In this document: positions 1,127-22,644 of the stretch, in pieces
How positions within the stretch are numbered: position 1 is the stretch's first letter
How the letters are laid out: the number at the start of each line of letters is the position of its first letter
Assembly (NCBI GenBank): GCA_965242965.1
Contig: OZ251518.1
Location: forward strand, 2,528,001 to 2,592,000
Direction of reading: 5' to 3'
Source: Candidatus Poribacteria bacterium
GTDB lineage: Bacteria; Poribacteria; WGA-4E; WGA-3G
Length of the DNA stretch: 64,000 nt
Notes under the pieces: model-generated
Told to the model about the DNA's origin: nothing
The model's database searches: none
The model's input: only the letters and a program-made list of their open reading frames with translations
Program-made: the position numbers and the translations under genes

Positions 1127-3259
1127 CTACTTTTCTCCCCGGAACCACCGGTGGATTGCAGCATTCCAACGGGCTACCCAGGTTTGACGCGCGATGCTCT
1201 GAAGGCCGTCTAGTTTTTGAGAAATTTCCCGCGTTTGACGCGCAGTGTCCTGAAGGCCGTCTAGTTTTTGAGAAATTTCCCGCAACAAATCCATTACAGC
1301 CGGTTGCAAATTGTCAGGAGTTTGCGGACCTCCTGCCCCCGGCGCAGGTTGTTGGGGAAGTTGTTGCATATTCTGGACTAAGTTGCGGAGGAGTTGATTC
1401 TGCTCCTGAGTCAGGCCGCCTGACTCAACGAGATGGCTTTCAATTTCCTGCAACACCCGATTTTGCGTCTCCAAAGTTGGACGAATCTGCAGCTCATTTG
1501 CGAGATGTCTAAACAACTGGTTCTGCGTATCAAGTGCCGCACCAATCTGCAACTCATCCGCAATTCGTTGAAGTAGCTGGTTTTGCACATCAAGTGCCGC
1601 ACCAATCTGCAACTCGCCTTCCAATCGCCGGATGGCCTGTAGGATGTCCCGTTGAATCGCCTCGCTGGCCTGAAAGGATGCGCCAAACTGTTGTCCGTTT
1701 ATGTCAAGTTGTTCTTTAATCCGCTCAAACGCCTGATTCTGTGCCTCAATTGCCGGGCGGATTTTCAACTCATCTGCTAATTGCGTCAGGACCTGGGCGA
1801 CATTCTGCTGCTGTCCTGTGATGCCGCGAATCTCGGCGAGCAACGCATTAGAAAGATTGTTAAGGAGTTCAGATTGTGAGTCCTGATACTCGCGAAGTGC
1901 GGCGTGCGATGCCTCCCGTTCCTCCGTTACCAATTGCATCAGGTTATCTGTCAATTGCGTGAGGAACTGCACGACATTCTGCTGCTGTCTTGTGATGTCC
2001 TGCATCTCGGTGAGCAAGTCATCGGAGAGTTTCTTAAGGTATTCGGATTGCGATGCCTGATACTCACGAAGTGCGGCGTGTGATGCCTCCCTCTCCTCCG
2101 CTACCAATTCCATCAAGGCACGCACCGTATCCTGCTGCCGCTCTGATACGGTTTGAACTTGGGTTTGCAAGGCAGTGGAGAGTTTGTCAATGAGCTCGGA
2201 TTGCGATGCCTGATACGCTTGAATCGCCGCTTGCAACGCTGCGCTCTCGTCTTCTAACCGCGGCACCGACTCTTCTAGGGCTTGGTTCAGCGCGTCTTGA
2301 TAGCCGCCAATTTCAGCCCTTGACTGCGCTGTCATGTCCTTAAACGAGTCAATAGCAGATGTAATCACCACCTGATACTCGTTGATTCCCGCTAGGCTTT
2401 TCAGGAGATTCTCCGCGGTTTCGTCAAACTTGAATGCCAGTATCTGTTGTTGCTCAAGATACCCACCCGATGAAGTCCGCATGAATTCTTGAATAGCGTT
2501 CTGCATCGCTGCGACATTTTCATCTGTAGTGAACTTCAACATTTTGGTGCATTCGGCGAGTTGCTTAACAGCGGAATCAATGGAGGCTTCCGGCGTTTGC
2601 GTGAAACGCGGTAATATTTCCTTTGACACGAATTCCTCAAGCGCGGTGCGAAAAGACGATTGCACGCGATTGAAAACCAAACCGACGAGACCTAAAACCA
2701 GGGACGTTAGTAGCCCGGCTATCGTGGTGCCAAACGCCGTGCTCATCCCGCCGACGGTGAGTTCCAGTGTCTTAGAAATTTCAGCGAGTTCCTCAAAATC
2801 TTCGATGCCTGTCACAATGGGACGCACTTCGGTGAGCGCGGTAATTAAACCCCATAATGTCCCCACCAAACCGAGGATAATCAGGATACCGAGGATGTGG
2901 TTCGCGAAACTGGCTCTTCGGCTCTCCTTGCCGGTGAGAATGTCAGCGAGGGCATCGTTGTCAACCTGTCCGCCGCTGTCTCTAATTTGGAGCAAGGCCT
3001 TGATGCGCTGGTAAATAATGCTTTGATCCCACACCTTCGTCTCGTCGAGTATGGCAAGCAACTGGGAGATATCGCCGAACCCGTGGTTGCGCGTAAAATA
3101 GGTTTGGACGCGCCACAGATTTCCCCACTGCCTTCCTATCAACGCAATTTGCAAAAGGTAGTTGATAATACCAATTACAAAGAAACCGCAAATCGTCCAG
3201 ACGATGCTGCTACCGATGTCATTGTCAAGGGTGAAAATAAAAATGAAAAGTTCGCCCAC
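1127..3259 (-). CDS. MotA/TolQ/ExbB-family membrane protein with ~500-aa coiled-coil tail (ZorA-like)
   Basis: LGLVGTLWGL and GMSTAFGTTIAGL TM motifs, then a long Q/E/L-rich helical tail with internal repeats; directly upstream of the MotB-like gene. Confidence 0.8.
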   Translation of the reverse strand: MGELFIFIFTLDNDIGSSIVWTICGFFVIGIINYLLQIALIGRQWGNLWRVQTYFTRNHGFGDISQLLAILDETKVWDQSIIYQRIKALLQIRDSGGQVDNDALADILTGKESRRASFANHILGILIILGLVGTLWGLITALTEVRPIVTGIEDFEELAEISKTLELTVGGMSTAFGTTIAGLLTSLVLGLVGLVFNRVQSSFRTALEEFVSKEILPRFTQTPEASIDSAVKQLAECTKMLKFTTDENVAAMQNAIQEFMRTSSGGYLEQQQILAFKFDETAENLLKSLAGINEYQVVITSAIDSFKDMTAQSRAEIGGYQDALNQALEESVPRLEDESAALQAAIQAYQASQSELIDKLSTALQTQVQTVSERQQDTVRALMELVAEEREASHAALREYQASQSEYLKKLSDDLLTEMQDITRQQQNVVQFLTQLTDNLMQLVTEEREASHAALREYQDSQSELLNNLSNALLAEIRGITGQQQNVAQVLTQLADELKIRPAIEAQNQAFERIKEQLDINGQQFGASFQASEAIQRDILQAIRRLEGELQIGAALDVQNQLLQRIADELQIGAALDTQNQLFRHLANELQIRPTLETQNRVLQEIESHLVESGGLTQEQNQLLRNLVQNMQQLPQQPAPGAGGPQTPDNLQPAVMDLLREISQKLDGLQDTARQTREISQKLDGLQSIARQTWVARWNAAIHRWFRGEK

Positions 3260-3364
3260 GCAGTTATCTCCATGAAGTGAAAACGATTAAGACTTATCCA
3301 TAAAGCATACCAAATTTCACCAAAAAAGTCAAATTCAATTTTTTCAAGCGCGCAGAATGCATTT

Positions 3365-3745
3365 GAAAGCGCGCCTACCGTCCGTAGGAGAGACCTCCCG
3401 GTCTCGATGCAATAGGGCTGCGCGCCTACCGGGGCCGCGGCGGCAGAAAGTCCCCCTTCATCGTAGGGCTTGGGCCCTCGCATGCCACACGCGCATCCGA
3501 GCGGGTTCCCCTCGCCAGCGTGCGTGCACGTGGAATCCAACGATCGCGGGGGACAGGCCCCCGCGCTACGAAAAAAAACGGCACTTCACCGTAGGGCGAG
3601 GGCCTGTCCCTCGCCATGCTGCGGTCTATCGAAAACTCGCGGAGGACAGGCCCCCGCGCTACGGGCACATCGAGACTAGGAGGTCTCTCCTACCGGAAAT
3701 CAAGCCCCGAGGTCTCTTCTACCGGCATGCATCGAGACCGGAAAC
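3365..3745. repeat. Mosaic cluster of GTAG-led palindromic REP-like units
   Basis: Contains GTAGGGCGAGGGCCTGTCCCTCGCC, CGCGGGGGACAGGCCCCCGCGCTAC and GTAGGAGAGACCTCCCGGTCTCG units that recur throughout the window. Confidence 0.9.
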
Positions 3746-3777
3746 GGCATTCTTTTTGAAGGCAGTCGAAAATAATT

Positions 3778-3805
3778 TGACATATTTCACAAAATGTAGT
3801 ATAAT
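3778..3805 (+). promoter_or_regulatory. Sigma70-like promoter for the ABC substrate-binding gene
   Basis: TTGACA...TATAAT near-consensus hexamers at canonical spacing, upstream of AAGGAG RBS and ATG 3890. Confidence 0.65.
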
Positions 3806-3889
3806 TAATGATAGTTTTTAAGAGTAGGGAAACGTTGCAAGGAAACCGTTTTTTCTGCCGTTCCCCGCTCAAACCTAAAGGAGATATTT

Positions 3890-5524
3890 ATGAATACGAA
3901 ATATAGCGCAGTTCAAACACGCGCATTTTCAATTGTCACGGCGATTTTTGTCGCACTGTTTTCACTCTCGGCAGTGTTGCTGTCCGGGTGTGAACGAATG
4001 AGTGAAGTGGTAGCCCCACCGGATACCACAGCGGCGACGTTGAAGGTTGGCGTGATTCAGCCTTCAAAGTATTATACCTCTTACACCAAAGGCGCGGAGC
4101 TCGCCCGGGCTGAGCTCAACGCTGCAGGGGGTATCCTCGGCATGCAGGTGGAGTTTGTCCCCCGGGATAACCAGACTTCTCCGGATGCGTTTCCTATGCC
4201 GGAAGCAACTATCCAAGTCGCCACAGAGTTAGTTGAGATGGAGAAAGTCGCGGCCATCCTCGGTCCAATTTTCTCAACGAACGCGGTGGAGATTGCGCCG
4301 ATTATTGAGATTCCGACACTCGCTGCCGCAACGGATGCGAGGGTCACAAAGGCAGGCGAGTTTATCTTTGTCGTCGGCGCGCCTAACAGTTTACACGGCC
4401 AGGGCATTGCGGAATTCGCCGTGAATGAACTGGAAGCCAAAACAGCCGCCACGATTCACCAAGACGGCGATGTCTACTCCATGGGACATCTCAACGCTTT
4501 CAATGAGCGTTTTAAGGCACTCGGTGGAGAGATTGCTGTCGCCGATGTTTATCAATCCGGCGATACGGACTTTAGCGCGCAACTCGCGAAAGTGAAAGCC
4601 GAAGCACCGGATGTCCTCCTCCTCTCTAGTTTCGCACCTGAGGTGCCCTTGTTGATTAAACAAGCGAAGGAGATGGAGATTACTGCAACCATCATTGGTG
4701 GTGATGGATGGGCGGATCCCGAGCTATTTTTCACCACGTTAGAAGATAACACGCCGTTAGACGGAAGTTACTTCACAACGGGACTTTCCGACCTCTCAAA
4801 CGCGCCGCCAAGCACACAGACGTTCATCGCGGCCTATACTGAAATGTATGGGATGGCACCCGATAGTGTGGCAGCGTCGGGCTATGACGGGATGAAACTC
4901 TTGGCCATGGGCATTAAAGAGGCGGCATCAACAGATGCAGTCGCCGTGCGCGATGCAATCGCCGCAATCACGGACTACGCCGGTGCAACGCTCATCTCTC
5001 GTTACGATGAAAACCGCAACCCTGTCAAAGAAATTGGCGGTGTTCTGGAAATTCGTGATGGGAAAACCCAGCCCTACGTCGCAATGCCAGAAACGGATGC
5101 GATGCCTGATGCAGGGGACATGACTACGGATACTCCCGCAACGACAGATGAAACCGCGGGTGCTGAGGACATGCCTCCGGTAACAGATGAAACCGCGGGT
5201 GAGGATATGCCTCCGGCAACAGATGAACCCACCGATGAGAAGGCAGATCCTGCTAAAGAGAAGGACGCTGCTGATGCAGGGGACATGCCCAAGGATACTC
5301 CCGGGGCGACAGATGAACCCACCGATGAGACAAAGGATCCTGCTAAAGAGAAGGATACTGCCGGTGCAGGGGACATGCCCAAGGATACTCCCGGGGCGAC
5401 AGATGAACCCACCGATGAGACAAAGGATCCTGCCGATGCGGGGAACATGACCAAGGATAAACCTGCAACGACGGAGGATGAAACCGACGACACGACAGAC
5501 AAGTCTGAGGATACATCTAAGTAG
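3890..5524 (+). CDS. Branched-chain amino acid ABC-type substrate-binding lipoprotein (LivJ/LivK family) with acidic repeat tail
   Basis: Lipobox LLSGC; LNAAGGILG, DFSAQLAKVK, IIGGDGW and GYDG motifs; C-terminal 30-aa D/E/T/P repeats. Confidence 0.9.
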   Translation: MNTKYSAVQTRAFSIVTAIFVALFSLSAVLLSGCERMSEVVAPPDTTAATLKVGVIQPSKYYTSYTKGAELARAELNAAGGILGMQVEFVPRDNQTSPDAFPMPEATIQVATELVEMEKVAAILGPIFSTNAVEIAPIIEIPTLAAATDARVTKAGEFIFVVGAPNSLHGQGIAEFAVNELEAKTAATIHQDGDVYSMGHLNAFNERFKALGGEIAVADVYQSGDTDFSAQLAKVKAEAPDVLLLSSFAPEVPLLIKQAKEMEITATIIGGDGWADPELFFTTLEDNTPLDGSYFTTGLSDLSNAPPSTQTFIAAYTEMYGMAPDSVAASGYDGMKLLAMGIKEAASTDAVAVRDAIAAITDYAGATLISRYDENRNPVKEIGGVLEIRDGKTQPYVAMPETDAMPDAGDMTTDTPATTDETAGAEDMPPVTDETAGEDMPPATDEPTDEKADPAKEKDAADAGDMPKDTPGATDEPTDETKDPAKEKDTAGAGDMPKDTPGATDEPTDETKDPADAGNMTKDKPATTEDETDDTTDKSEDTSK

Positions 5525-12925: not shown

Positions 12926-14402
12926 TCAAAAATAAGTCTGCTCGCCGCCGTAATGCCGTTCCGCCTTTGGACGTTCGTCCACCTGCCACGGCAAGTGGAT
13001 AGGCAGCGTGCCATCCGCAAAATAGACATCCGTTATTTGCCAGAATTGCAGGCGCGGATAGTGCTTACCGTTATGCTCTAGCATGCCAGCGGCCTCGGCG
13101 AGGTTCCGCATGCCGCGCGTCACCGGATGCAGTGTGATGAAAATACCGAGGGCGGCCGCCGTATCCTGCATCGCCGTGCGGAAGGCGCGCACCTGATTCG
13201 GGTTCAAACTCCTCCCCGATTTTACCTCGGCGATGACAGGCAATTGCGTCTGCGTCGCCTCGGCGAGGTGATGATTCTCCCAAAGCACCACCTTCCCACT
13301 GCCATCAAACCCGCCATCGTTGGTATTGGACGTGGGCGAAAGCCCCAGGCGAGTCACTGCCCAATTGGCGAAATCGTGCGGATTCTGCTCGGCGAGGAGG
13401 ATGGCATCCTGCCATGTCCCCGGATACCCTTCAATGGTATAATCCACCTTTGGACGAAGCCCATGGCGTTCGCGCAGCCGACGCTCCATCGGTTCCAAAG
13501 CCAACACGGTTAAATCAATGCCAACCCAATGGCGTTGCAATCCATGCGCGGCATCTAACGCTGTGCCACAGCCACAAAACGGATCGAAGACAATGTCACC
13601 CGGTTTAGAGGAAGTTTTGATAATCCATTCCAAGAGCGCGAGCGGCTTCTGCGTCGGATAGCCGAGACGTTCTTTGGACATGGCATTCAGCGATGGCATG
13701 ACAAGCACGTCGTCAGGCGTTTTGCCTTTCGGCATCGCTTTGCCGGATTGCCCTCCCTTGGCGTATCGCCACTCTGTCATGCCGCTCTCAAAAGGCACAA
13801 GGATTTCATCGCGGTTGAAAGTGTAGTCCTTCGGCGATTTGCTATACCAGAGGAGGACATCGTGAGCCCTTGCGAGCCGCCGTTTGCCGCGCGAGGCATT
13901 TTTGTAATACCAGATAATTTCGTTCTGAAAGTTCACCGAACCGAAGATAACGTCCAGCATGCATTTCAGATAGTGACTCGCGTGCGGATCGCAGTGCAGA
14001 TACACACTCCCATTTGGCGTTAGCAGCCGCCAAATCTCTGCCAAGCGCGGTGCCATGAAGGCGAGATACGCAAGCATTGATTCAGTTTCACTTTGTCCTC
14101 TCGACCCCCCCCTTCAAAATTTGGTCAAAACCCGTTAAACAGTCTGACAAATTGTCCATGGTTTCAACGAGTTCAGGGTGCCGCCCATCGTAGTGAAGGA
14201 CAGATGCCTGATTTTCGCGCGCCGCGTCGTCCCACCGCCAGATGTCGTCAAACGCCTTGCGTTGCGCTTTTGAGCCGGCGAGGAAAATGTTGTAGTTGCG
14301 GCCGCTGTTAAACGGCGGATCGAGATAACAGATGTGATAACTGCCTGTCTGCATCTCGCGCATGACGTTGAGGTTATCGCCAAAATAGAGCGCGTTTTTC
14401 AT
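12926..14402 (-). CDS. Beta-class DNA methyltransferase-Mrr-like endonuclease fusion, copy 1; frameshifted at G8 (14105-14112)
   Basis: Same architecture; removing one G gives LKGGSRGQSETESMLAYL in frame. Confidence 0.85.
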
Positions 14403-15440: not shown

Positions 15441-16427
15441 TTATGGCGGAGGCAAAAATCTCTCGCCGGTTTTGAGTTGGTAACCGTTGACAAAATCGCG
15501 CGCGGCCATCGCTTTCTTCGTTGCAGGCTGAACTTGCAAGAGTTCAAGTGTTCCTTCACCTGTAGCGACGCGGAGCTGCCCTCTGCCCGTAATTTCAATC
15601 GTTCCGGGAATAGGGGACAAAGCCTGCGAGTCAAGAGTTTGTGGGGGACAGGCCCCCGCGCTACGGAGAGAACATGGTAGACAACGGAGAATCTTGAGCC
15701 GCAGATTCTCTCTGAAAAAGGCATACGCCCCCGGCCAGCCTTCGGTACCTCTCACAAGATTGTGAATAGCGGTGGCAGAACAATGCCAGTCGATGCATCC
15801 TGTCTCTTTTGTGAGGCGTGGTGCGCGCGTCGCTTCGTCGTGACGCTGCGGCGTTGCGGACGGCGGTGCAGCTGCCGGCATCTCTTTTAGCACCTTCAAC
15901 AACAGATTCGCGCCCAAGCACGCTAACTTCTCCATCAATGTGACAGCGGTATCCGCATCTTGAATCGGAATTCGTTCCGCACAGATAATATCACCGGTAT
16001 CCTCGCCTGCATCCAACAACATTAACGTGATGCCTGTCTCTGTCTCGCCATTAATAAGTGCCCATTGCACCGGGGCAGCCCCTCGGTATTTCGGCAGGAG
16101 CGACGGATGCAGGTTAATCGTGCCGCACGGCGGGATGTCTAACATTGATTGCGGTAGCAGCTGCCCGAAAGCGGCGACGACGATGACATCCGGCGCGAGC
16201 CGTTCCAGCGTTCGGATAAAACCGCGCTGCCGCACCTTTTCCGGTTGATAGAACGGCAGGTTGTGTTGTTCTGCGACTACCTTGACAGGTGGCGGCGTGA
16301 GCCGTTTGCCGCGGCCACTGCGCCGGTCTGGTTGCGTGACGATACCAATGAGTTCAGATTCGTGGGCAATGAGTGTTTTCAGTGCTGGCACTGCAAATTC
16401 ACTTGTGCCCATAAATACGATACGCAC
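15441..16427 (-). CDS. fmt: Methionyl-tRNA formyltransferase
   Basis: RIVFMGT, NLHPSLLPKYRGAAP; in-frame repeat-derived insert near the C-terminus. Confidence 0.97.
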   Translation of the reverse strand: MRIVFMGTSEFAVPALKTLIAHESELIGIVTQPDRRSGRGKRLTPPPVKVVAEQHNLPFYQPEKVRQRGFIRTLERLAPDVIVVAAFGQLLPQSMLDIPPCGTINLHPSLLPKYRGAAPVQWALINGETETGITLMLLDAGEDTGDIICAERIPIQDADTAVTLMEKLACLGANLLLKVLKEMPAAAPPSATPQRHDEATRAPRLTKETGCIDWHCSATAIHNLVRGTEGWPGAYAFFRENLRLKILRCLPCSLRSAGACPPQTLDSQALSPIPGTIEITGRGQLRVATGEGTLELLQVQPATKKAMAARDFVNGYQLKTGERFLPPP

Positions 16428-16495
16428 TTAGAAACTCCAGATTCGTTCAGTGTAGCCCCCGTTCTTGATTGCGTCGGGACTCTACCGGCTCAAAA

Positions 16496-17083
16496 TTAGA
16501 ACCGAATAAGCAGGATAGGCACTGCAACTCCCGCCGCCGGTTCATTTGCCCACCGATTGAGCCTATTTCCTGAAGGAACGAAAGGGATGGGTGTCCCTCG
16601 CGCTACGGTAATCGGGACATTATGAGGGAGACGCGCGACAGGGCCCTCTATCGGCTCGCCTTCTACCGGCTCGCCTTCTTCAGTCGGTGGCGATGGAGGT
16701 GGCGGTGGCGGTTCAGGCTCCGGAATGCGTGGGGCAGAAATGTCTACATCGCGCGTGCGCCACCAATCCCACACCCCGATGAACAACGATAAGGATGCCG
16801 CGCCGATGCCGATTATCCGATAATCCCGCGGCGACAACTCCGGCGCAATCTGATTTTCGCGATACATCTTGACACCGCGCACCACCAAATAACTTTGAAC
16901 GGCGGTAAATGGCACGGAACTCAGCGTGATAATTTCAAACCGACGCAGCGCGCTTTCGTGATAGGTTTCCGCGGGGCGCGCTTGCTGCTGTTGTCCTTCC
17001 GGCGGTGCCTGCTGCGCTTGCGCCGCCGGAAGTATTGAAAGAGTTAGGCTGAACGTTAATATCTGAACCGTTAATTTGAACAT
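16496..17083 (-). CDS. Hypothetical exported/membrane protein, Pro-rich
   Basis: Signal peptide (PAAQA), two hydrophobic segments, poly-Pro stretch; in operon between lspA and fmt. Confidence 0.7.
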   Translation of the reverse strand: MFKLTVQILTFSLTLSILPAAQAQQAPPEGQQQQARPAETYHESALRRFEIITLSSVPFTAVQSYLVVRGVKMYRENQIAPELSPRDYRIIGIGAASLSLFIGVWDWWRTRDVDISAPRIPEPEPPPPPPSPPTEEGEPVEGEPIEGPVARLPHNVPITVARGTPIPFVPSGNRLNRWANEPAAGVAVPILLIRF

Positions 17084-17159
17084 GGTTGCCTCGGCTCGCG
17101 AGGGACAGGCCCTCGCGCTTTGATATTTGGTATGAGGGAGATGTGCGGTACTCCCTCGC

Positions 17160-17663
17160 CTAGAAATTCTCTTCGTGCCGATGTCGGTTGCGGAAGAGGT
17201 AAACAATCAGCATCCCCGCGCCAATACACACCGACATATCGGCAACGTTAAATGTCGGCCAAAACAGCCCACGGCTCTCAATTCCAAATTGGAGAAAATC
17301 GACAACTTCTCCCAGGTAAAGCCTGTCAATAAAGTTTCCGATTGCGCCGCCGAGCAGAAAGCCAGAGGCGATTTGCATCCACCGGCTGTCACGGAATTTG
17401 AGAAAATAGACAAAAATGAAAGCGAGCGCGACAAACGTGACCAGGATGAGGAATGTCCGATGTCCGGCTAACACGCCGAAAGCCGCCCCGCTGTTCCTAT
17501 CGTGCCGAAGGTTGAAGAAACCGGGAATGACAGGGTAGCCGTATCCGCGTGGGATGTGCTGTTGGATGAGCCATTTGCTCCCCCAATCCAATGCCAGCAT
17601 CGGCAGTGCCACACCGATGAAAGGGAGCACAGTTTTCCACGTGAGGTTCTTAAATAAGTTCAT
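17160..17663 (-). CDS. lspA: Signal peptidase II
   Basis: NSGAAFG, GGAIGNFIDR, VVDF, FNVAD. Confidence 0.97.
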   Translation of the reverse strand: MNLFKNLTWKTVLPFIGVALPMLALDWGSKWLIQQHIPRGYGYPVIPGFFNLRHDRNSGAAFGVLAGHRTFLILVTFVALAFIFVYFLKFRDSRWMQIASGFLLGGAIGNFIDRLYLGEVVDFLQFGIESRGLFWPTFNVADMSVCIGAGMLIVYLFRNRHRHEENF

Positions 17664-20271
17664 CCTTGAGCGACTCCCAGTCAGTTTTTGCGTCAGGTTG
17701 TGCCGGGGGCAGGTGTAGCCAGCGTGTCAGGAAAATGCTATTCGGGGCATCGGTTGCTGTTTTCTTCTGGCTTTTGCCACCTGTGCTTATCACCGGCGCG
17801 CTACAGAGATTGTATCCATACTCGGCTAAAAAAGGCGTGAGCGGCGCGAGACGTTGCAGGAGGACGGTGAGTATCGCGGAGAAGGTGCGCCGCGCCGCGC
17901 TAATCGTCGACTTGGGCCGTTTTGCTATCAACCGCGCGTAAACCCCCAGGTCGGCGTTGCAGAAGTCAACGAGGATACGCCACATTTCGTGGAAATTCCC
18001 CACCGGGTAAGCCTGTTGCACGGCTTGCATGCACGCCTCGGTCGCGGCGAGCGCGAGCGCGTCAATGCGGCGATGCTTATCCTTTGTCTCTCGCGAGGGG
18101 GAAATCGCTTTCCCTTTGACAACGGAAGAGTCATAGCCGCCGAGGGCTTGCAGTTCAACCGCCATTTTTTCCAAGATGCTTTGCAGCTGCTGGTATTCCG
18201 CGAGGCATTGCGCGAGGGCAGTCTTCATTTGCGTCCGATTTATGTCAGGCATTATCGCGGCGAGCCGTCCGACATCTGCCGGGTAGTCGTCAAAAAACGC
18301 GTCGTCTAGTGTGAAATCTCTAGCGCGCTTTGCTTCCACCGGGATGTTCCGGAGCATGAACTGCTTAAACGGTTGGCTCTCTTTAATCGGGCGGCTCCGG
18401 CTGAGGCAGGCGCAGAGAATGCTAGTTTCCGCTAACCACGTTGAAAATCCAGTCTGTGGCACAAAGGCGACGCTGACAAGCCCGCCCGGCGGTTTCTTGA
18501 AATCGGAACTGTTCACTGCCTGCAGCAGGTTCGCGAAGTGGCTATCAAGAAGCATCGCTTCCTTCCGGAATTCCTTTGAACCGCATTTCGGGCAGAACGT
18601 ATCGGCGGGTAAGAGTTCTTCAACGCTCAGACGGAACCAAAGATCTGCCCCGCGGCGGACAGCATCGCGGATAGCGAGAAGCGTATTTTTATCCGCCAGC
18701 GGTTCATCGCATTCGTCACAGAACAGAATCGGCAGCGGCATCCCCCATTGACGTTTCCCGGAGACTGGCAGTGCCGAGAAATTCGCTACGGCTTTGCGAG
18801 TTTCGTTCATCTCGGCATGTTCGGCTGCACCGTAATTATCCCAATAAATCTGCGCACGGAGCTCTTGCGCTGTCGGATGTTTTTTAGCAACGCCGAATAC
18901 CCAATGCGAACACGGCCGGAAAACCGCCGCTGTCTCACAGCGAGGACAGTGGTGCGCGTGCATCTCGTGCTCGCAACCCGGTGACTGGAGGAGGTATCCA
19001 AACCGTTCTAATTCGGGGGCGATGAGTTTCTCCGCGGCATAAAGATTTAAGCCGCACAGCGTGCCTGCCTCTTCGGTGAACCTGCCGGCATCGTCGAAAA
19101 TCGCACTTGAACTTTTGCCTAACTTCTGAGCGATGTAGTAACTCCGCGCATCGTGCGCGGGATTCAACGGAATCACACCGGTGTCGGAATAGGGGGTTTC
19201 TACCGCAAATCCATTCTTTTTCAGCATCGACGCGGCGTATGTGGAAACCGCTTTTGGCATGGCGATAATTTTCAACGTTTTCGATGGATAGAGGGGATGC
19301 GACACCTCGCTTTTGGCGAGCGCGTCACAAGAGACTTCCTCAATAATTTCCGGTACCGCCGCGCCTTCGGGGAGAGACGATTGGAAACGTTCCAATTGCT
19401 GTTTCGCAAATAAGAGATATTCCCCTTCAAACTGCGTGATGCAGTAGGTGGCGTTTTTGGTAATGCCGAGCTCCGTGATACCGGCTATCTCCCACAGGTG
19501 CGCTACTTGGACACAGAAGGAGACATCCAACCCGTAGTGTTCCAAGCCAATGCTGAACGGGAATTTTACATACGCAGGAAGCACGGTGGTGGTTACCTGT
19601 TCTGTCGCGGTTTCGTCAAGCGGCGCGATACATTTAGGGCACCAGGGGCTGAGTTGCGCCCTGTCCAGCAGATGCCGGTCTTCCCGCAAACGGCTGAGCA
19701 GCGGAATCAACTTCGCCTCCTGACGAAAATCGAGATTTTTTTGCCCGGTATCCCAATCGGCAAAGTTACCGAGTTGATGTAACCGCTCGCTTTGCGCTAC
19801 TACCCGCTCCTGATAAAGCGTGCGACAGTCCTTCCGCAGCCGCGCCGGGGAAACAGGCGTTTTAGCGGGTGCCTTCTTCGCGACATCGTCCTCAATTCGG
19901 ACAGGATATTTCTCCCAAGCGGGGATGTAAATCACTTGGTGGCCTTGCATCATCTCCGTTTTGAGGAAGATATCTTGGTGAATTTTCCGACACAGCGTGC
20001 TGAGCGTCAGCGTGTGGATAGGGGTAGGCATCTCACGAATGGCGTAGGTAATCGGATGCTGTGCCTCGTCTTCGGGATTTTCGGCACTGCGGCGTGCGGC
20101 GCGCGGCACCTTGGTAGTCTGCACCTTCCCGCGCACTACCGGGTAAACCTTCGCATTTGCCCAATGACGGAGGATTGTCTCTTCGCGTGAGCGGCCAGCG
20201 ACAGCGGCGCGCCGCTTTTGGCGGCCATTGGGTTGCGTATTTTTCTTAGGCGGTCTGCCTCTTTTTTTCAT
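17650..20271 (-). CDS. Degenerate isoleucyl-tRNA synthetase homolog (catalytic motifs lost)
   Basis: Collinear with IleRS by eye (REETILRHW, LGNFADW, WCPKC, RQWGMPLP, YPADVGRL, LAPLTPFLAE) but lacks HIGH, GWDCHG and KMSKS; overlaps the lspA start. Confidence 0.85.
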   Translation of the reverse strand: MKKRGRPPKKNTQPNGRQKRRAAVAGRSREETILRHWANAKVYPVVRGKVQTTKVPRAARRSAENPEDEAQHPITYAIREMPTPIHTLTLSTLCRKIHQDIFLKTEMMQGHQVIYIPAWEKYPVRIEDDVAKKAPAKTPVSPARLRKDCRTLYQERVVAQSERLHQLGNFADWDTGQKNLDFRQEAKLIPLLSRLREDRHLLDRAQLSPWCPKCIAPLDETATEQVTTTVLPAYVKFPFSIGLEHYGLDVSFCVQVAHLWEIAGITELGITKNATYCITQFEGEYLLFAKQQLERFQSSLPEGAAVPEIIEEVSCDALAKSEVSHPLYPSKTLKIIAMPKAVSTYAASMLKKNGFAVETPYSDTGVIPLNPAHDARSYYIAQKLGKSSSAIFDDAGRFTEEAGTLCGLNLYAAEKLIAPELERFGYLLQSPGCEHEMHAHHCPRCETAAVFRPCSHWVFGVAKKHPTAQELRAQIYWDNYGAAEHAEMNETRKAVANFSALPVSGKRQWGMPLPILFCDECDEPLADKNTLLAIRDAVRRGADLWFRLSVEELLPADTFCPKCGSKEFRKEAMLLDSHFANLLQAVNSSDFKKPPGGLVSVAFVPQTGFSTWLAETSILCACLSRSRPIKESQPFKQFMLRNIPVEAKRARDFTLDDAFFDDYPADVGRLAAIMPDINRTQMKTALAQCLAEYQQLQSILEKMAVELQALGGYDSSVVKGKAISPSRETKDKHRRIDALALAATEACMQAVQQAYPVGNFHEMWRILVDFCNADLGVYARLIAKRPKSTISAARRTFSAILTVLLQRLAPLTPFLAEYGYNLCSAPVISTGGKSQKKTATDAPNSIFLTRWLHLPPAQPDAKTDWESLKDELI

Positions 20272-20354
20272 AAGAACCCTAGCATCAGCGAGCGTGCCCG
20301 TAGAAGAGTGCCGAGGGCGACGCTTGCGCTTTTGTAACGGGAAAGACGTTGGGA

Positions 20355-20636
20355 CTATGCCCCAAGCATCCGCGCCATAACATGTAACAACATGATGAGG
20401 ATAAACGGTGAAATATCAATGCCAAAATTCGCTGTCACCGGTTCAATCAGGCGGCGTATCGGGTTCAGCACCGGATCTACGAAGCTGCTCGTGAACCAAT
20501 AAATGCGCCTGACGGTAAAGTTGCTGCGCGGGCCAAAAACGAACCATGACAGAATGACATTGAGAAAAACGACGATGATGTAAATCTCAAGCAGTTGCTT
20601 GAGGGCTGTGGCGACAACTGTGGCGACAATGTCCAT
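20355..20636 (-). CDS. yggT: YggT family membrane protein
   Basis: ILSWF, DPVLNPIRR, GIDISP; follows proC. Confidence 0.9.
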   Translation of the reverse strand: MDIVATVVATALKQLLEIYIIVVFLNVILSWFVFGPRSNFTVRRIYWFTSSFVDPVLNPIRRLIEPVTANFGIDISPFILIMLLHVMARMLGA

Positions 20637-20670
20637 AAAAAGTCTACCTTTCGCGAGTGGAAGTTTGCTC

Positions 20671-21483
20671 CTACGCGCTCCCCAACTCCTTCGCGCGTTC
20701 GGTTGCGGCGAGGATGGCTTCCGTCAGCATTGCCCGCACGCCGCCCGATTCAAGCGCGTGGAGGCCCGCTGCTGTCGTCCCTCCCGGTGTCGTGACGCGG
20801 TTTTTCAGCAGTGCCGGGTGTTCCTCGGTTTCGGCTAACATCGTCGCTGTGCCTAACACGGTATGCGTTGCTAGTTTTTGTGCCGCCTGCCGCGGTAAAC
20901 CGACGTAGACACCTGCATCTGCTAACGCCTCAACGAAAAGCGCGACATAGGCAGGCCCGCTTCCGCTAAGCCCCGTAACGGCGTTGAGATGGTGTTCATC
21001 CATCACTAACGTCGTCCCGCAGGCGTTGAAAAGTTCGGTGGCTATCTCAATATGTGTCGCCTCGGCGCAACTTCCTTTGGTTAGCACAGAGATAGCGGCA
21101 CCGGCAGCGGCGGCGATGTTCGGCATCACTCGCACGATAGGCGGCGGCTTCGTAAAATAGGACTCCAGCGTTTTAGTGGACACCCCGGCGGCGATGCTCA
21201 TGAGCCAGTGTTGTGGCGACAGCCCCTCTGCCACCTGCGGCATGACATGCGGCACAACACCCGGCGGCACGGCGCACAATACCGCATCGGTATGCTGGGC
21301 AAGTTCGGCGATATTTGCAGCGGCGTTCACCCCTTTTTCATCGCGCAGTTGCGCGACGAGTGCCCTGTCAATGTCCGTAATCCAAATCTGGTTCGCGGGA
21401 AGAGCGCGGTTTGCAATGTTTTTGACGATAACGCCGCCCATTTTTCCAACGCCTATCACGCCGAGTCGAAAGTTTTCTGTCAC
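20671..21483 (-). CDS. proC: Pyrroline-5-carboxylate reductase
   Basis: IGVGKMG, RVMPN, GLSGSGPAY, TPGGTT. Confidence 0.97.
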   Translation of the reverse strand: MTENFRLGVIGVGKMGGVIVKNIANRALPANQIWITDIDRALVAQLRDEKGVNAAANIAELAQHTDAVLCAVPPGVVPHVMPQVAEGLSPQHWLMSIAAGVSTKTLESYFTKPPPIVRVMPNIAAAAGAAISVLTKGSCAEATHIEIATELFNACGTTLVMDEHHLNAVTGLSGSGPAYVALFVEALADAGVYVGLPRQAAQKLATHTVLGTATMLAETEEHPALLKNRVTTPGGTTAAGLHALESGGVRAMLTEAILAATERAKELGSA

Positions 21484-21664
21484 GTTTGGCTCCTATCTTA
21501 CACAACCTCAGTAGGAGGGACATCTGTTTGCGATTAGGCGAGCGCAAACTACAGAATAGGGAAATCCCGATACCGTCTCGGTAGGAGGGACATCCTTGTC
21601 CCGATACCGTTCCTACGCCGGTGATTCTGTCAAGACCGGGAGGTCTCTCCTACCAGAACGCTCC

Positions 21665-22360
21665 CTACGCCGGCGGCTCGAAAATTGCCCTACCGATGCG
21701 CACGATGTTCGCGCCTTCTTCAACCGCGATTTCAAAATCGTTCGTCATGCCCATGGAGAGAAAGCGCATCTCAATCCCCGGATATTGCTGCGCCGTTACC
21801 TTATCTGCGAGTGCCTTGAGTGAAACGAAAGCCGGGCGATTCTCCTCTGGCGTATCGGTTAATTTCCCCATTGTCATCAACCCAAGGATGCGCACCCGTG
21901 GATATGCCAAAGCGGTTTCCATGAAGTCTAACACTGCATCGGGTTCTATGCCGTATTTGCGCGCCTCACCGGTTGTGTTCACCTGAATTAAGACATCAAT
22001 GTTTCTGCTTCGCGCCGTTGCACAGCGCGCAATTTCAGTTAAGAGCCGCACGCTGTCGACAGAATGAATCATCGAGAACATATCCAGAACCGATTTCACC
22101 TTATTTCGCTGCAAGTGGCCGATAAGATGCCAACTGCAGCCGCTGGGAAGCCGAATCTGCCGGTATTTCTCTTGCGCCTCTTGCACCCGATTTTCGCCGA
22201 TGAAACGCACACCGGCATCAAGGACTGCCTGAATTTCGGGGACAGAACGTCCTTTCGTGACAGCGACAACCGAGATGGCCTCGCGTGGACGACCGCTTCG
22301 TTTCGCGGCATCGGCAATGCGTTCCTTCACGTTGGTGAGATTTTCTGCAATTTGATTCAA
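21665..22360 (-). CDS. yggS: PLP homeostasis protein YggS
   Basis: VAVTK, GENRVQE, WHLIGHLQRNK, SMGMTNDF; TTG start overlapping the upstream stop is assumed. Confidence 0.95.
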   Translation of the reverse strand: MNQIAENLTNVKERIADAAKRSGRPREAISVVAVTKGRSVPEIQAVLDAGVRFIGENRVQEAQEKYRQIRLPSGCSWHLIGHLQRNKVKSVLDMFSMIHSVDSVRLLTEIARCATARSRNIDVLIQVNTTGEARKYGIEPDAVLDFMETALAYPRVRILGLMTMGKLTDTPEENRPAFVSLKALADKVTAQQYPGIEMRFLSMGMTNDFEIAVEEGANIVRIGRAIFEPPA

Positions 22361-22644
22361 CTGCCTTTTTCCTCTAACGGGTTCTTTTCTACGGCTGGGG
22401 CTCCTTTGTTCGCTTTGTTGCACAATAGGATGCCGACAACGGCGACTAACACGGCGAAACAGACGATACCGATGCCTACCGTCACTGTGTGCGTTGCTTC
22501 CGTGTAAATCTGCGTGACTTGAACTGCGCTGGCGGCTTCGGCTAATGTTTCCTGATATTGTGTAGGATGCTGGCTGCCGCGAAGGATAACGACGAAGCCG
22601 ACACTCCCGATACCGATAGATAGCAGTGCAAATAGCAAACGCAT
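22357..22644 (-). CDS. Small two-TM hypothetical protein
   Basis: Two hydrophobic segments; GGAGA RBS; stop coupled to yggS. Confidence 0.6.
   Translation of the reverse strand: MRLLFALLSIGIGSVGFVVILRGSQHPTQYQETLAEAASAVQVTQIYTEATHTVTVGIGIVCFAVLVAVVGILLCNKANKGAPAVEKNPLEEKGS

Follow-up and report, generated by a model that had tools for sequence, protein, structure and literature searches.

A putative pseudo-synthetase derived from type-1 isoleucyl-tRNA synthetase at the ileS-lspA locus of Poribacteria

The window analysed here, a 64,000-nucleotide stretch from the assembly of a sponge-associated Candidatus Poribacteria bacterium (contig OZ251518.1, positions 2,528,001 to 2,592,000), carries immediately upstream of lspA an open reading frame (ORF) that is collinear with isoleucyl-tRNA synthetase (IleRS) and has lost the catalytic and editing motifs of that enzyme. 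We refer to it as pseudo-IleRS1. An earlier reading of the letters alone (the original prediction) had described an intact frame of 873 amino acids (aa) in front of lspA; the frame is indeed uninterrupted, and lies on the minus strand. AGGG lies 5 bases upstream of its ATG, and its end shares a 14-nt overlap with the start of lspA. A yggT-family gene and proC lie upstream, followed beyond proC by genes for a yggS-like pyridoxal-phosphate protein, a YfiH/laccase-domain protein, a cupin and a CT398-like protein; downstream of lspA are an ORF without a Pfam match, fmt and a gene for a PASTA-domain protein (Table 1). In the annotated record of E. coli K-12, lspA immediately follows ileS. We take the Bacillus subtilis order to be ylmD-ylmE-sepF-ylmG-ylmH-divIVA-ileS-lspA, which would make the whole neighbourhood ancestral.

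The ORF resembles IleRS far beyond chance. TIGR00392, the ileS equivalog model, scores it at 171.9 bits (E 2e-50), below the curated cut-off of 621.4, and Pfam detects a weak tRNA-synt_1 domain (68.7 bits, residues 94-583) and an Anticodon_1 domain (36 bits, residues 740-860). Its nearest solved sequences are of IleRS1 (8c9e, 92.7 bits, versus 45.3 bits for IleRS2). Structure prediction, a check proposed with the original prediction, gave a confident IleRS fold: the AlphaFold2 model built from the family alignment has a mean predicted local distance difference test score (pLDDT) of 84.9 and a predicted template modelling score of 0.84, with pLDDT <50 restricted to residues 1-23, 46-70 and 357-360. 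The best Foldseek matches of the model are the IleRS1 structures 8c9f, 8c9e and 1qu2 (E 7e-36 to 3.5e-32). Their template modelling (TM) scores of 0.53-0.57 are moderate, as expected of a flexible multi-domain protein. Pfam, AlphaFold2 and Foldseek agree that the IleRS domain order is kept, running from the Rossmann domain through CP1 and the CP core to the helical anticodon-binding domain.

Motifs were read from MAFFT alignments in which E. coli IleS and the genome's own IleRS were set against the ORF and 19 orthologs, and then from a smaller, more careful alignment. These agree with the proposed losses of HIGH, GWDCHG, WTTTPWT, the editing Asp and KMSKS, and with the retention of four CxxC pairs. 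The E. coli segment HDGPPYANGSIHIGH pairs with REMPTPIH-TLTLST (in a shorter view, PPYANGSIHIGH with PTPIH-TLTLST), so that HIGH is replaced by TLST at residues 89-92. The segment EGSDQHRGWF reads PQTG--FSTWL. The CP1 fold is predicted with pLDDT ~80-93, and within it the editing motif TGAVHTAPGHGPDD pairs with TGVIPLNPAHDARS (residues 364-377), the His becoming Pro and the last Asp becoming Ser; in E. coli numbering these are presumably H333 and D342. Several distant family members keep the final editing Asp. HIGH is missing in all 20 aligned family orthologs and also in the 16 lowest-identity representative matches without canonical motifs (P0122, P0123, P0127-P0134, P0136-P0139, P0143 and P0161). 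The ORF ends where the junction domain of E. coli IleS begins, and the ~130 aa that are gone include both CxxC pairs of the zinc-binding domain, in keeping with the C-terminal zinc finger having been reported absent. The internal pairs C211/214, C442/445, C518/521 and C560/563 are invariant in the 58-sequence family alignment; by analogy with other IleRS, we take them to form two zinc sites of structural importance.

HXGH is kept by all 158 IleRS1 sequences surveyed in one study (PMC10485003), which also reports that E. coli and Priestia megaterium IleRS1 no longer form product once HXGH is swapped to GXHH. For this reason, activation of isoleucine by a type-1 scaffold that has TLST and no KMSKS appears very unlikely, and from its motifs neither tRNA charging nor editing by the ORF protein seems plausible.

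A different gene appears to do this work. The ileS model, run over the whole 5.7-Mb assembly (2 contigs, 94.7% complete), gave a sole match above the cut-off, at 967.3 bits (G000:C1:2047132-2049666, locus L001), within an open frame 1118 codons long. Below the cut-off were the pseudo-IleRS1 ORF and three matches that we took, from frame length and score only, as ValRS, LeuRS and MetRS. The high-scoring enzyme has GWDTHG, WTTTPWT, GTGLVHIAPAFGQDDY and KMSKS, with GVHH where HXGH stood. According to the same source, the swapped GXHH form confers mupirocin hyper-resistance on IleRS2 (PMC10485003); GVHH in the working IleRS2 suggests long exposure of the lineage to IleRS inhibitors. A second IleRS-like match of ~1050 aa is present in most relatives.

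The ancestry of both genes was placed with a quick maximum-likelihood tree (IQ-TREE; 41 rows, 917 columns, LG+G4, SH-aLRT support without bootstrap) of 14 family members, 16 canonical IleRS1, 5 other degenerate IleRS1-like proteins, 5 presumed IleRS2 and the genome's ValRS as outgroup. Many rows are of deviant composition and two end branches are very long. Four IleRS2 rows, the genome's own canonical enzyme and three others, split from the remaining 36 with SH-aLRT 100; P0265, presumed to be an IleRS2 from its length, grouped among IleRS1. The 14 family rows form a single clade (SH-aLRT 100) within IleRS1, on a long stem of 0.39 + 0.43 changes per site. The ORF is of type-1 descent and occupies the ancestral yggT-ileS-lspA position; it has descended, without moving, from the original type-1 ileS of the ileS-lspA operon. 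That this gene had been displaced by another copy, as first proposed, is borne out by the canonical IleRS2 elsewhere in the genome.

Named database matches come from Candidatus Poribacteria metagenome-assembled genomes (MAGs), with one cluster member labelled Deltaproteobacteria; they bear the titles "isoleucyl-tRNA synthetase", "class I tRNA ligase family protein" or "hypothetical protein". Among species-representative genomes, all full-length matches with at least 25% identity and a named phylum are Poribacteria MAGs, and four other records are titled only "uncultured bacterium"; matches below 25% identity are ordinary IleRS from other phyla. Within Poribacteria, 133 of 151 genomes have a match (E<=1e-25), with members down to ~25% identity and no match carrying an in-frame stop. 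By family code, matches were found in 98/99 genomes of f1 (the single miss being a 73%-complete genome), 22/26 of f3 (the four misses all in genus g8, which thus has 0/4), 4/4 of f4, 5/5 of f5, 2/2 of f6 and 1/1 of f7. None was found in f2 (0/10), f9 (0/1) or f8 (0/2); the f8 count is misleading, as the ileS model finds an lspA-linked IleRS1-like ORF in both genomes. In G042, the f9 genome, a fragment at a contig end scores 251 bits to ileS and lies away from lspA.

Searching 77 ortholog loci with the window's proteins by tblastn (the loci came from two overlapping fetches, so several genomes are counted twice), we found LspA a short way downstream, in the same orientation, in 74 of 77, one exception ending 53 nt past the gene, and YggT and ProC upstream in 76 of 77. 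The distance from pseudo-ileS to lspA ranges from a small overlap up to 608 nt, including gaps of 256-608 nt among orthologs, and translational coupling is therefore not general. At L028 (G015:C2), LspA, YggT and ProC were not found by tblastn and a 430-aa ORF follows pseudo-ileS; this locus is apparently rearranged. In one f5 genome, a putative DivIVA-like ORF, so read from its N-terminal sequence, lies between proC and pseudo-ileS. After lspA, relatives carry an ORF of 163-188 aa with a hydrophobic, signal-peptide-like N-terminus, then ORFs reading like def and fmt. An Rfam scan of the 64-kb window returned 0 families at the gathering score, and thus no T-box, leader or tRNA by that route. 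The promoter and terminator scan of 16000-22600 was not informative, with 5 promoter-like sites (4.3 expected) and 7 terminator-like sites (8.4 expected).

Table 1 Positions of the pseudo-IleRS1 gene, its altered motifs and other features of the window.
Feature	Coordinates	Strand	Details
Pseudo-IleRS1 ORF	17650..20271	minus	873 codons + stop, ATG start; protein P0001
N-terminal Lys/Arg-rich tail	20194..20271	minus	residues 1-26; 10 K/R, 0 D/E; predicted disordered, pLDDT <50 at residues 1-23
RGRP core	20251-20262	minus	within N-terminus MKKRGRPPKK
Insert, residues 46-70	20062..20136	minus	poorly conserved, predicted disordered
Former PPYANG-HIGH region	19996..20037	minus	reads REMPTPIHTLTLST; HIGH = TLST; conserved in family
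Former GWDCHG	19903..19920	minus	reads AWEKYP, residues 118-123
CP1 (editing-domain) fold	19072..19671	minus	residues ~201-400
T-rich editing motif WTTTPWT	19489-19509	minus	reads QVAHLWE, residues 255-261
Editing His/Asp motif	19138-19182	minus	reads TGVIPLNPAHDARSY
Span with four CxxC pairs	18577..19641	minus	pairs at 19630-19641, 18937-18948, 18709-18720 and 18583-18594 (CPKC); CPKCGS = 18577-18594
Family-specific conserved segment	18358..18405	minus	LSRSRPIKESQPFKQF; 6-aa insertion versus E. coli IleS
Place of KMSKS loop	18313..18333	minus	shortened, AKRARDF (residues 647-653), upstream of YPADVGRL; variable within family
Helical anticodon-binding domain (ARD1)	17782..18081	minus	residues ~731-830; chain ends soon after
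lspA (lipoprotein signal peptidase II)	17160..17663	minus	Peptidase_A8, 140.4 bits
yggT-family gene	20355..20636	minus	directly upstream of pseudo-IleRS1; conserved neighbour
proC (pyrroline-5-carboxylate reductase)	20671..21483	minus	conserved neighbour
ORF without Pfam match	16496-17206	minus	downstream of lspA
383-aa ORF	12926-14077	minus	N6/N4 DNA methylase domain (144.9 bits) and weak Mrr-type restriction endonuclease domain (23.2 bits)

Pseudo-IleRS1 is under purifying selection. The ratio of nonsynonymous to synonymous substitution rates (dN/dS; Nei-Gojobori, own script) is 0.14-0.26 in nine of nine ortholog pairs, the G000-G002 pair having a dS of ~1, near saturation, and, in two pairs scanned with sliding windows of 100 codons, is below 0.6 throughout. 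For comparison, the ratio within the same pairs of genomes is 0.07-0.11 for IleRS2, 0.13-0.19 for proC and 0.06-0.26 for lspA. The constraint is thus about that of the housekeeping neighbours and about half that of the working synthetase. Selection for a new function had been proposed at the outset, with a ratio near 1 and frequent disruptions as the contrary outcome; the ratios are far from 1, and no disrupted copy was seen among the matches in 133 genomes.

Constraint is unevenly spread along the chain. Scored as the share of positions at least 95% conserved among 47 close-clade sequences, conservation reaches 36% in the N-terminal Rossmann half, 45% in the CP core with its zinc knuckles and 39% in the C-terminal Rossmann half, and falls to 29% in CP1, 26% in the anticodon-binding domain and 0% in both the insert at 46-72 and the linker at 701-730. 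The replacement motifs are themselves conserved: YVxREMPTP, TLCRKIxQDIFLK, PAWExYP, QRQWGMPLPIL, WFRLSVEELLP and RSRPxKESQPFKQ (also given as RSRPxKESQPFKQF). Across all 58 family sequences, the invariant residues are mostly ancestral structural ones, namely W, P, G and the Cys pairs.

Forms that differ in their degree of loss survive in different Poribacteria lineages. In G041, a genome of the deep-branching f8 lineage (L125; G041:C105, locus 1147-3942, minus strand), the lspA-linked IleRS1-like ORF has 931 aa and scores 445.5 bits, below the cut-off; in the f8 genome G043 (L128), a contig-end IleRS1-like fragment is followed by lspA. The G041 ORF is followed by lspA and then by a putative lgt-like ORF, so read from its N-terminus. 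P0161, a database look-alike of the f8 form, is sister to the family in the tree. Both the f8 form and P0161 have lost HIGH (NLNIND / NISVNN), GWDCHG (IWNCYT), KMSKS (deleted) and the editing His/Asp, and both retain a canonical N-terminus (MNYIKTLNLPK...), a partial T-rich motif (WIGTPWT) and, at the C-terminus, the two zinc-binding CxxC pairs. The f5, f4 and f3 forms are without the C-terminal domains, and the f1-type clade, which holds the window, adds an N-terminal tail rich in Lys, Arg, Ser and Thr. These sequences suggest that the motifs were lost first, the C-terminal zinc domain next, and that the basic tail was gained last.

Degenerate IleRS1-like proteins without HIGH and/or KMSKS also occur outside Poribacteria: P0135, P0143 and P0150, which form one clade, P0141 and others. 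The records name an Armatimonadota MAG for P0150 and a Bacillota MAG for P0141, and each of the degenerate outsiders is alone in its cluster. In these cases ileS1 may have met the same fate independently.

The N-terminal tail was examined because the original prediction had singled out an AT-hook-like motif there. An AT-hook is an RGRP core with basic flanks, of the HMGA type, and the start of the window's protein, MKKRGRPPKK, fits the core pattern. A Pfam scan of the ORF at E<=0.01 gave no AT-hook match. Tails elsewhere in the family differ in being rich in Lys, Arg, Ser and Thr without GRP. Only 4 of 58 family sequences have GRP, each from a close relative of the window's genus, and among the 20 aligned orthologs it is confined to loci L009-L011. 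The motif itself is therefore present as described, but an AT-hook as the key feature of the family was rejected; RGRP is a genus-level feature and cannot explain why the family is retained. What the close clade shares is the basic tail, found in 46 of 47 sequences with a median of 10 K/R and 2 D/E per 29 residues; the N-termini of the 16 canonical IleRS1 carry 1-6 K/R.

Pseudo-IleRS1 is most likely a catalytically dead, IleRS1-derived pseudo-enzyme with a non-charging role, conserved across most of the phylum. In the full explanation that we favour, with a probability of roughly 60%, a displaced type-1 ileS has been kept as a selected pseudo-synthetase and putative RNA binder. A type-2 IleRS with GVHH serves to charge tRNA-Ile in this lineage; the old type-1 gene has lost its residues for ATP binding, isoleucine binding and editing while the gene itself was retained; and its intact, well-folded product, under purifying selection in most of the phylum, is a probable pseudo-synthetase. 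The ligand is a more tentative matter. We put it at somewhat below even odds that the protein binds RNA without catalysis, most plausibly tRNA, for example as an adaptor or sensor. Binding would use the retained scaffold, that is, the zinc-stabilised CP core and the helical anticodon-binding domain. RNA is favoured because the motif-less f8 form, with its ancestral architecture intact, retains the tRNA-reading zinc domain, because no form has lost the helical anticodon-binding domain, and because the window's clade gained a disordered polybasic tail. In that clade the tail may add non-specific nucleic-acid affinity, having been gained after the wobble-reading C-terminal domains were lost. The disordered polybasic tails of eukaryotic LysRS and AspRS add non-specific tRNA affinity.

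Several observations weigh against this explanation. IleRS's C-terminal domains read the wobble base, according to PMC13752280, and they are absent from the window's form, a loss that argues against simple recognition of tRNA-Ile through its anticodon. The remaining anticodon-binding domain has the highest dN/dS in one pair (0.30-0.57), and it is also only 26% conserved, versus 36-45% in the remodelled catalytic core; the pattern suggests that constraint lies on the core and not on the tRNA-anticodon end. The basic tail cannot explain retention across the phylum, because only one of 11 distant members is even moderately basic (P0129; in P0137, acidic residues equal basic ones in number), and most family proteins are net negative in charge. 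The dN/dS of pseudo-IleRS1 is about twice that of IleRS2, and branches inside the family are long. Finally, two lineages, f2 and g8, deleted the gene, with proC followed by lspA after 0.4-0.8 kb in five of five genomes examined; its function is therefore dispensable in some backgrounds.

A more specific version of the pseudo-synthetase explanation we consider doubtful. The remodelled former active-site core, not the tRNA-anticodon end, would carry a new specific function at the end of a stepwise path from enzyme to pseudo-enzyme: either sensing or sequestering of tRNA-Ile or Ile-tRNA, coupling translation status to envelope or growth control, or a new aminoacyl-tRNA-dependent chemistry.

Two alternatives stay in contention through the strong conservation of the remodelled core, and are unlikely to a similar degree. 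In one, the remodelled core would have taken on a new role in ligand binding or catalysis, such as use of Ile-tRNA as an acyl donor, or binding of a small molecule. Cyclodipeptide synthases, which are without HIGH and KMSKS, reportedly use aminoacyl-tRNA in this way. The former Rossmann halves and the CP core are the most conserved parts in the close clade, including REMPTP, PAWExYP and RSRPxKESQPFKQF, but the pocket replacements vary by subfamily, with E, N, Q or D at the position of the GWD Asp and a variable HIGH position, and the residues invariant over 58 sequences are mostly structural. Class I synthetase-like enzymes that use aminoacyl-tRNA are known, as described for SbzA in PMC12945691; SbzA, however, keeps HYGH and AMSKA and belongs to a biosynthetic cluster, whereas pseudo-ileS sits among housekeeping genes.

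In the other, pseudo-IleRS1 no longer handles RNA and serves as a protein-protein scaffold or regulator, its partner being either IleRS2 or nearby envelope or division proteins. Pairing with IleRS2 would be in the manner of SLIMP (seryl-tRNA synthetase-like insect mitochondrial protein), a dead SerRS paralog that pairs with SerRS. A confidently folded multi-domain body under selection, the loss of the anticodon-reading C-terminal domains and the SLIMP precedent (PMC9437257) are all consistent with such a role. The conserved yfiH-like/yggS/proC/yggT ... lspA cluster, with the putative divIVA-like ORF adjoining in one lineage, also fits, but ancestral synteny explains this neighbourhood, and the basic disordered tail suggests nucleic-acid over protein partners.

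It is highly improbable that the gene is a functionless, decaying relic kept open for transcriptional or translational read-through into lspA. The overlap with the lspA start, evolution about twice as fast as that of IleRS2 and deletion in two lineages that kept lspA would suit a relic; low dN/dS along the full length, sliding windows included, the lack of internal stops in the matches of 133 genomes, the conserved new motifs, the confident AlphaFold2 model and the lack of overlap with lspA in many orthologs, with gaps of up to 256-608 nt, would not. A still-active isoleucyl-tRNA synthetase or trans-editing factor with unorthodox motifs is scarcely credible despite the full-length IleRS fold (Rossmann, CP1 and ARD1), given that HIGH, KMSKS, the GWD Asp, the QHRGWF segment, the T-rich motif and the editing His/Asp are all replaced, that IleRS1 tolerates no positional swap in HXGH (PMC10485003) and that a canonical IleRS2 with intact editing motifs coexists. 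Two more specific candidates were set aside: a trans-editing factor in the window's clade, as the editing His/Asp and the T-rich motif are replaced, and a decoy for mupirocin-like IleRS inhibitors, as the adenylate-pocket residues are replaced and differ between subfamilies.

If the favoured pseudo-synthetase explanation is right, a resident ileS1 did not disappear after a resistant ileS2 took over, nor did it persist as a further enzyme; it became a pseudo-enzyme under selection. Early and late stages still exist in different Poribacteria lineages, so that present-day sequences reveal in what order the changes came, and this side-by-side coexistence of conversion stages should interest specialists in synthetase evolution. 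There is also a practical consequence: annotation as "class I tRNA ligase family protein" or "isoleucyl-tRNA synthetase" would cause IleRS copies to be miscounted in metabolic and antibiotic-resistance inference. Our literature search found no description of an IleRS1-derived, motif-less family spanning most of a phylum, nor of the Poribacteria family. The available portion of a 2026 IleRS survey (preprint) has 0 occurrences of the terms Poribacteria, inactive, degenerate, truncated and lspA; the survey kept sequences with at least 30% identity to COG IleRS, possibly filtering the family out.

Compared with IleRS1 (P. megaterium 8C9E/8C9F, S. aureus 1QU2 and E. coli IleS), pseudo-IleRS1 shares ancestry, fold, domain order, the internal zinc-knuckle cysteines and the place upstream of lspA; it differs in being without HIGH, KMSKS, the amino-acid and editing residues and the C-terminal junction and zinc domains, and in its added basic N-terminal tail. 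It is an IleRS1 in fold and descent that, judged by motifs and model score, would not function as an isoleucine--tRNA ligase (TIGR00392 / EC 6.1.1.5). LeuRS-I of the Sulfolobaceae is likewise a non-charging class Ia paralog beside a working enzyme, with a disrupted CP1 and a divergent C-terminus. It makes leucyl-adenylate and binds tRNA-Leu, whereas the Poribacteria protein is bacterial, IleRS1-derived and without the ATP-binding motifs (LeuRS-I as described in PMC9437257). SLIMP and HisZ are also synthetase-derived, do not aminoacylate and are kept for binding or regulation (PMC9437257), but they are class II proteins of other lineages with known partners (SerRS2/LON and HisG, respectively). 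Streptomyces SbzA is, like pseudo-IleRS1 in the favoured explanation, an IleRS paralog recruited to a job outside translation. PMC12945691 credits it with HYGH and AMSKA, weak charging, a C-terminal tRNA-binding domain and a place in an antibiotic gene cluster; in pseudo-IleRS1, HXGH and xMSKx are absent, and the neighbours are proC, yggT, lspA, fmt and a yggS-like gene. The Poribacteria family is a new, phylum-level variant of the known synthetase-derived pseudo-enzymes, such as HisZ, SLIMP and LeuRS-I.

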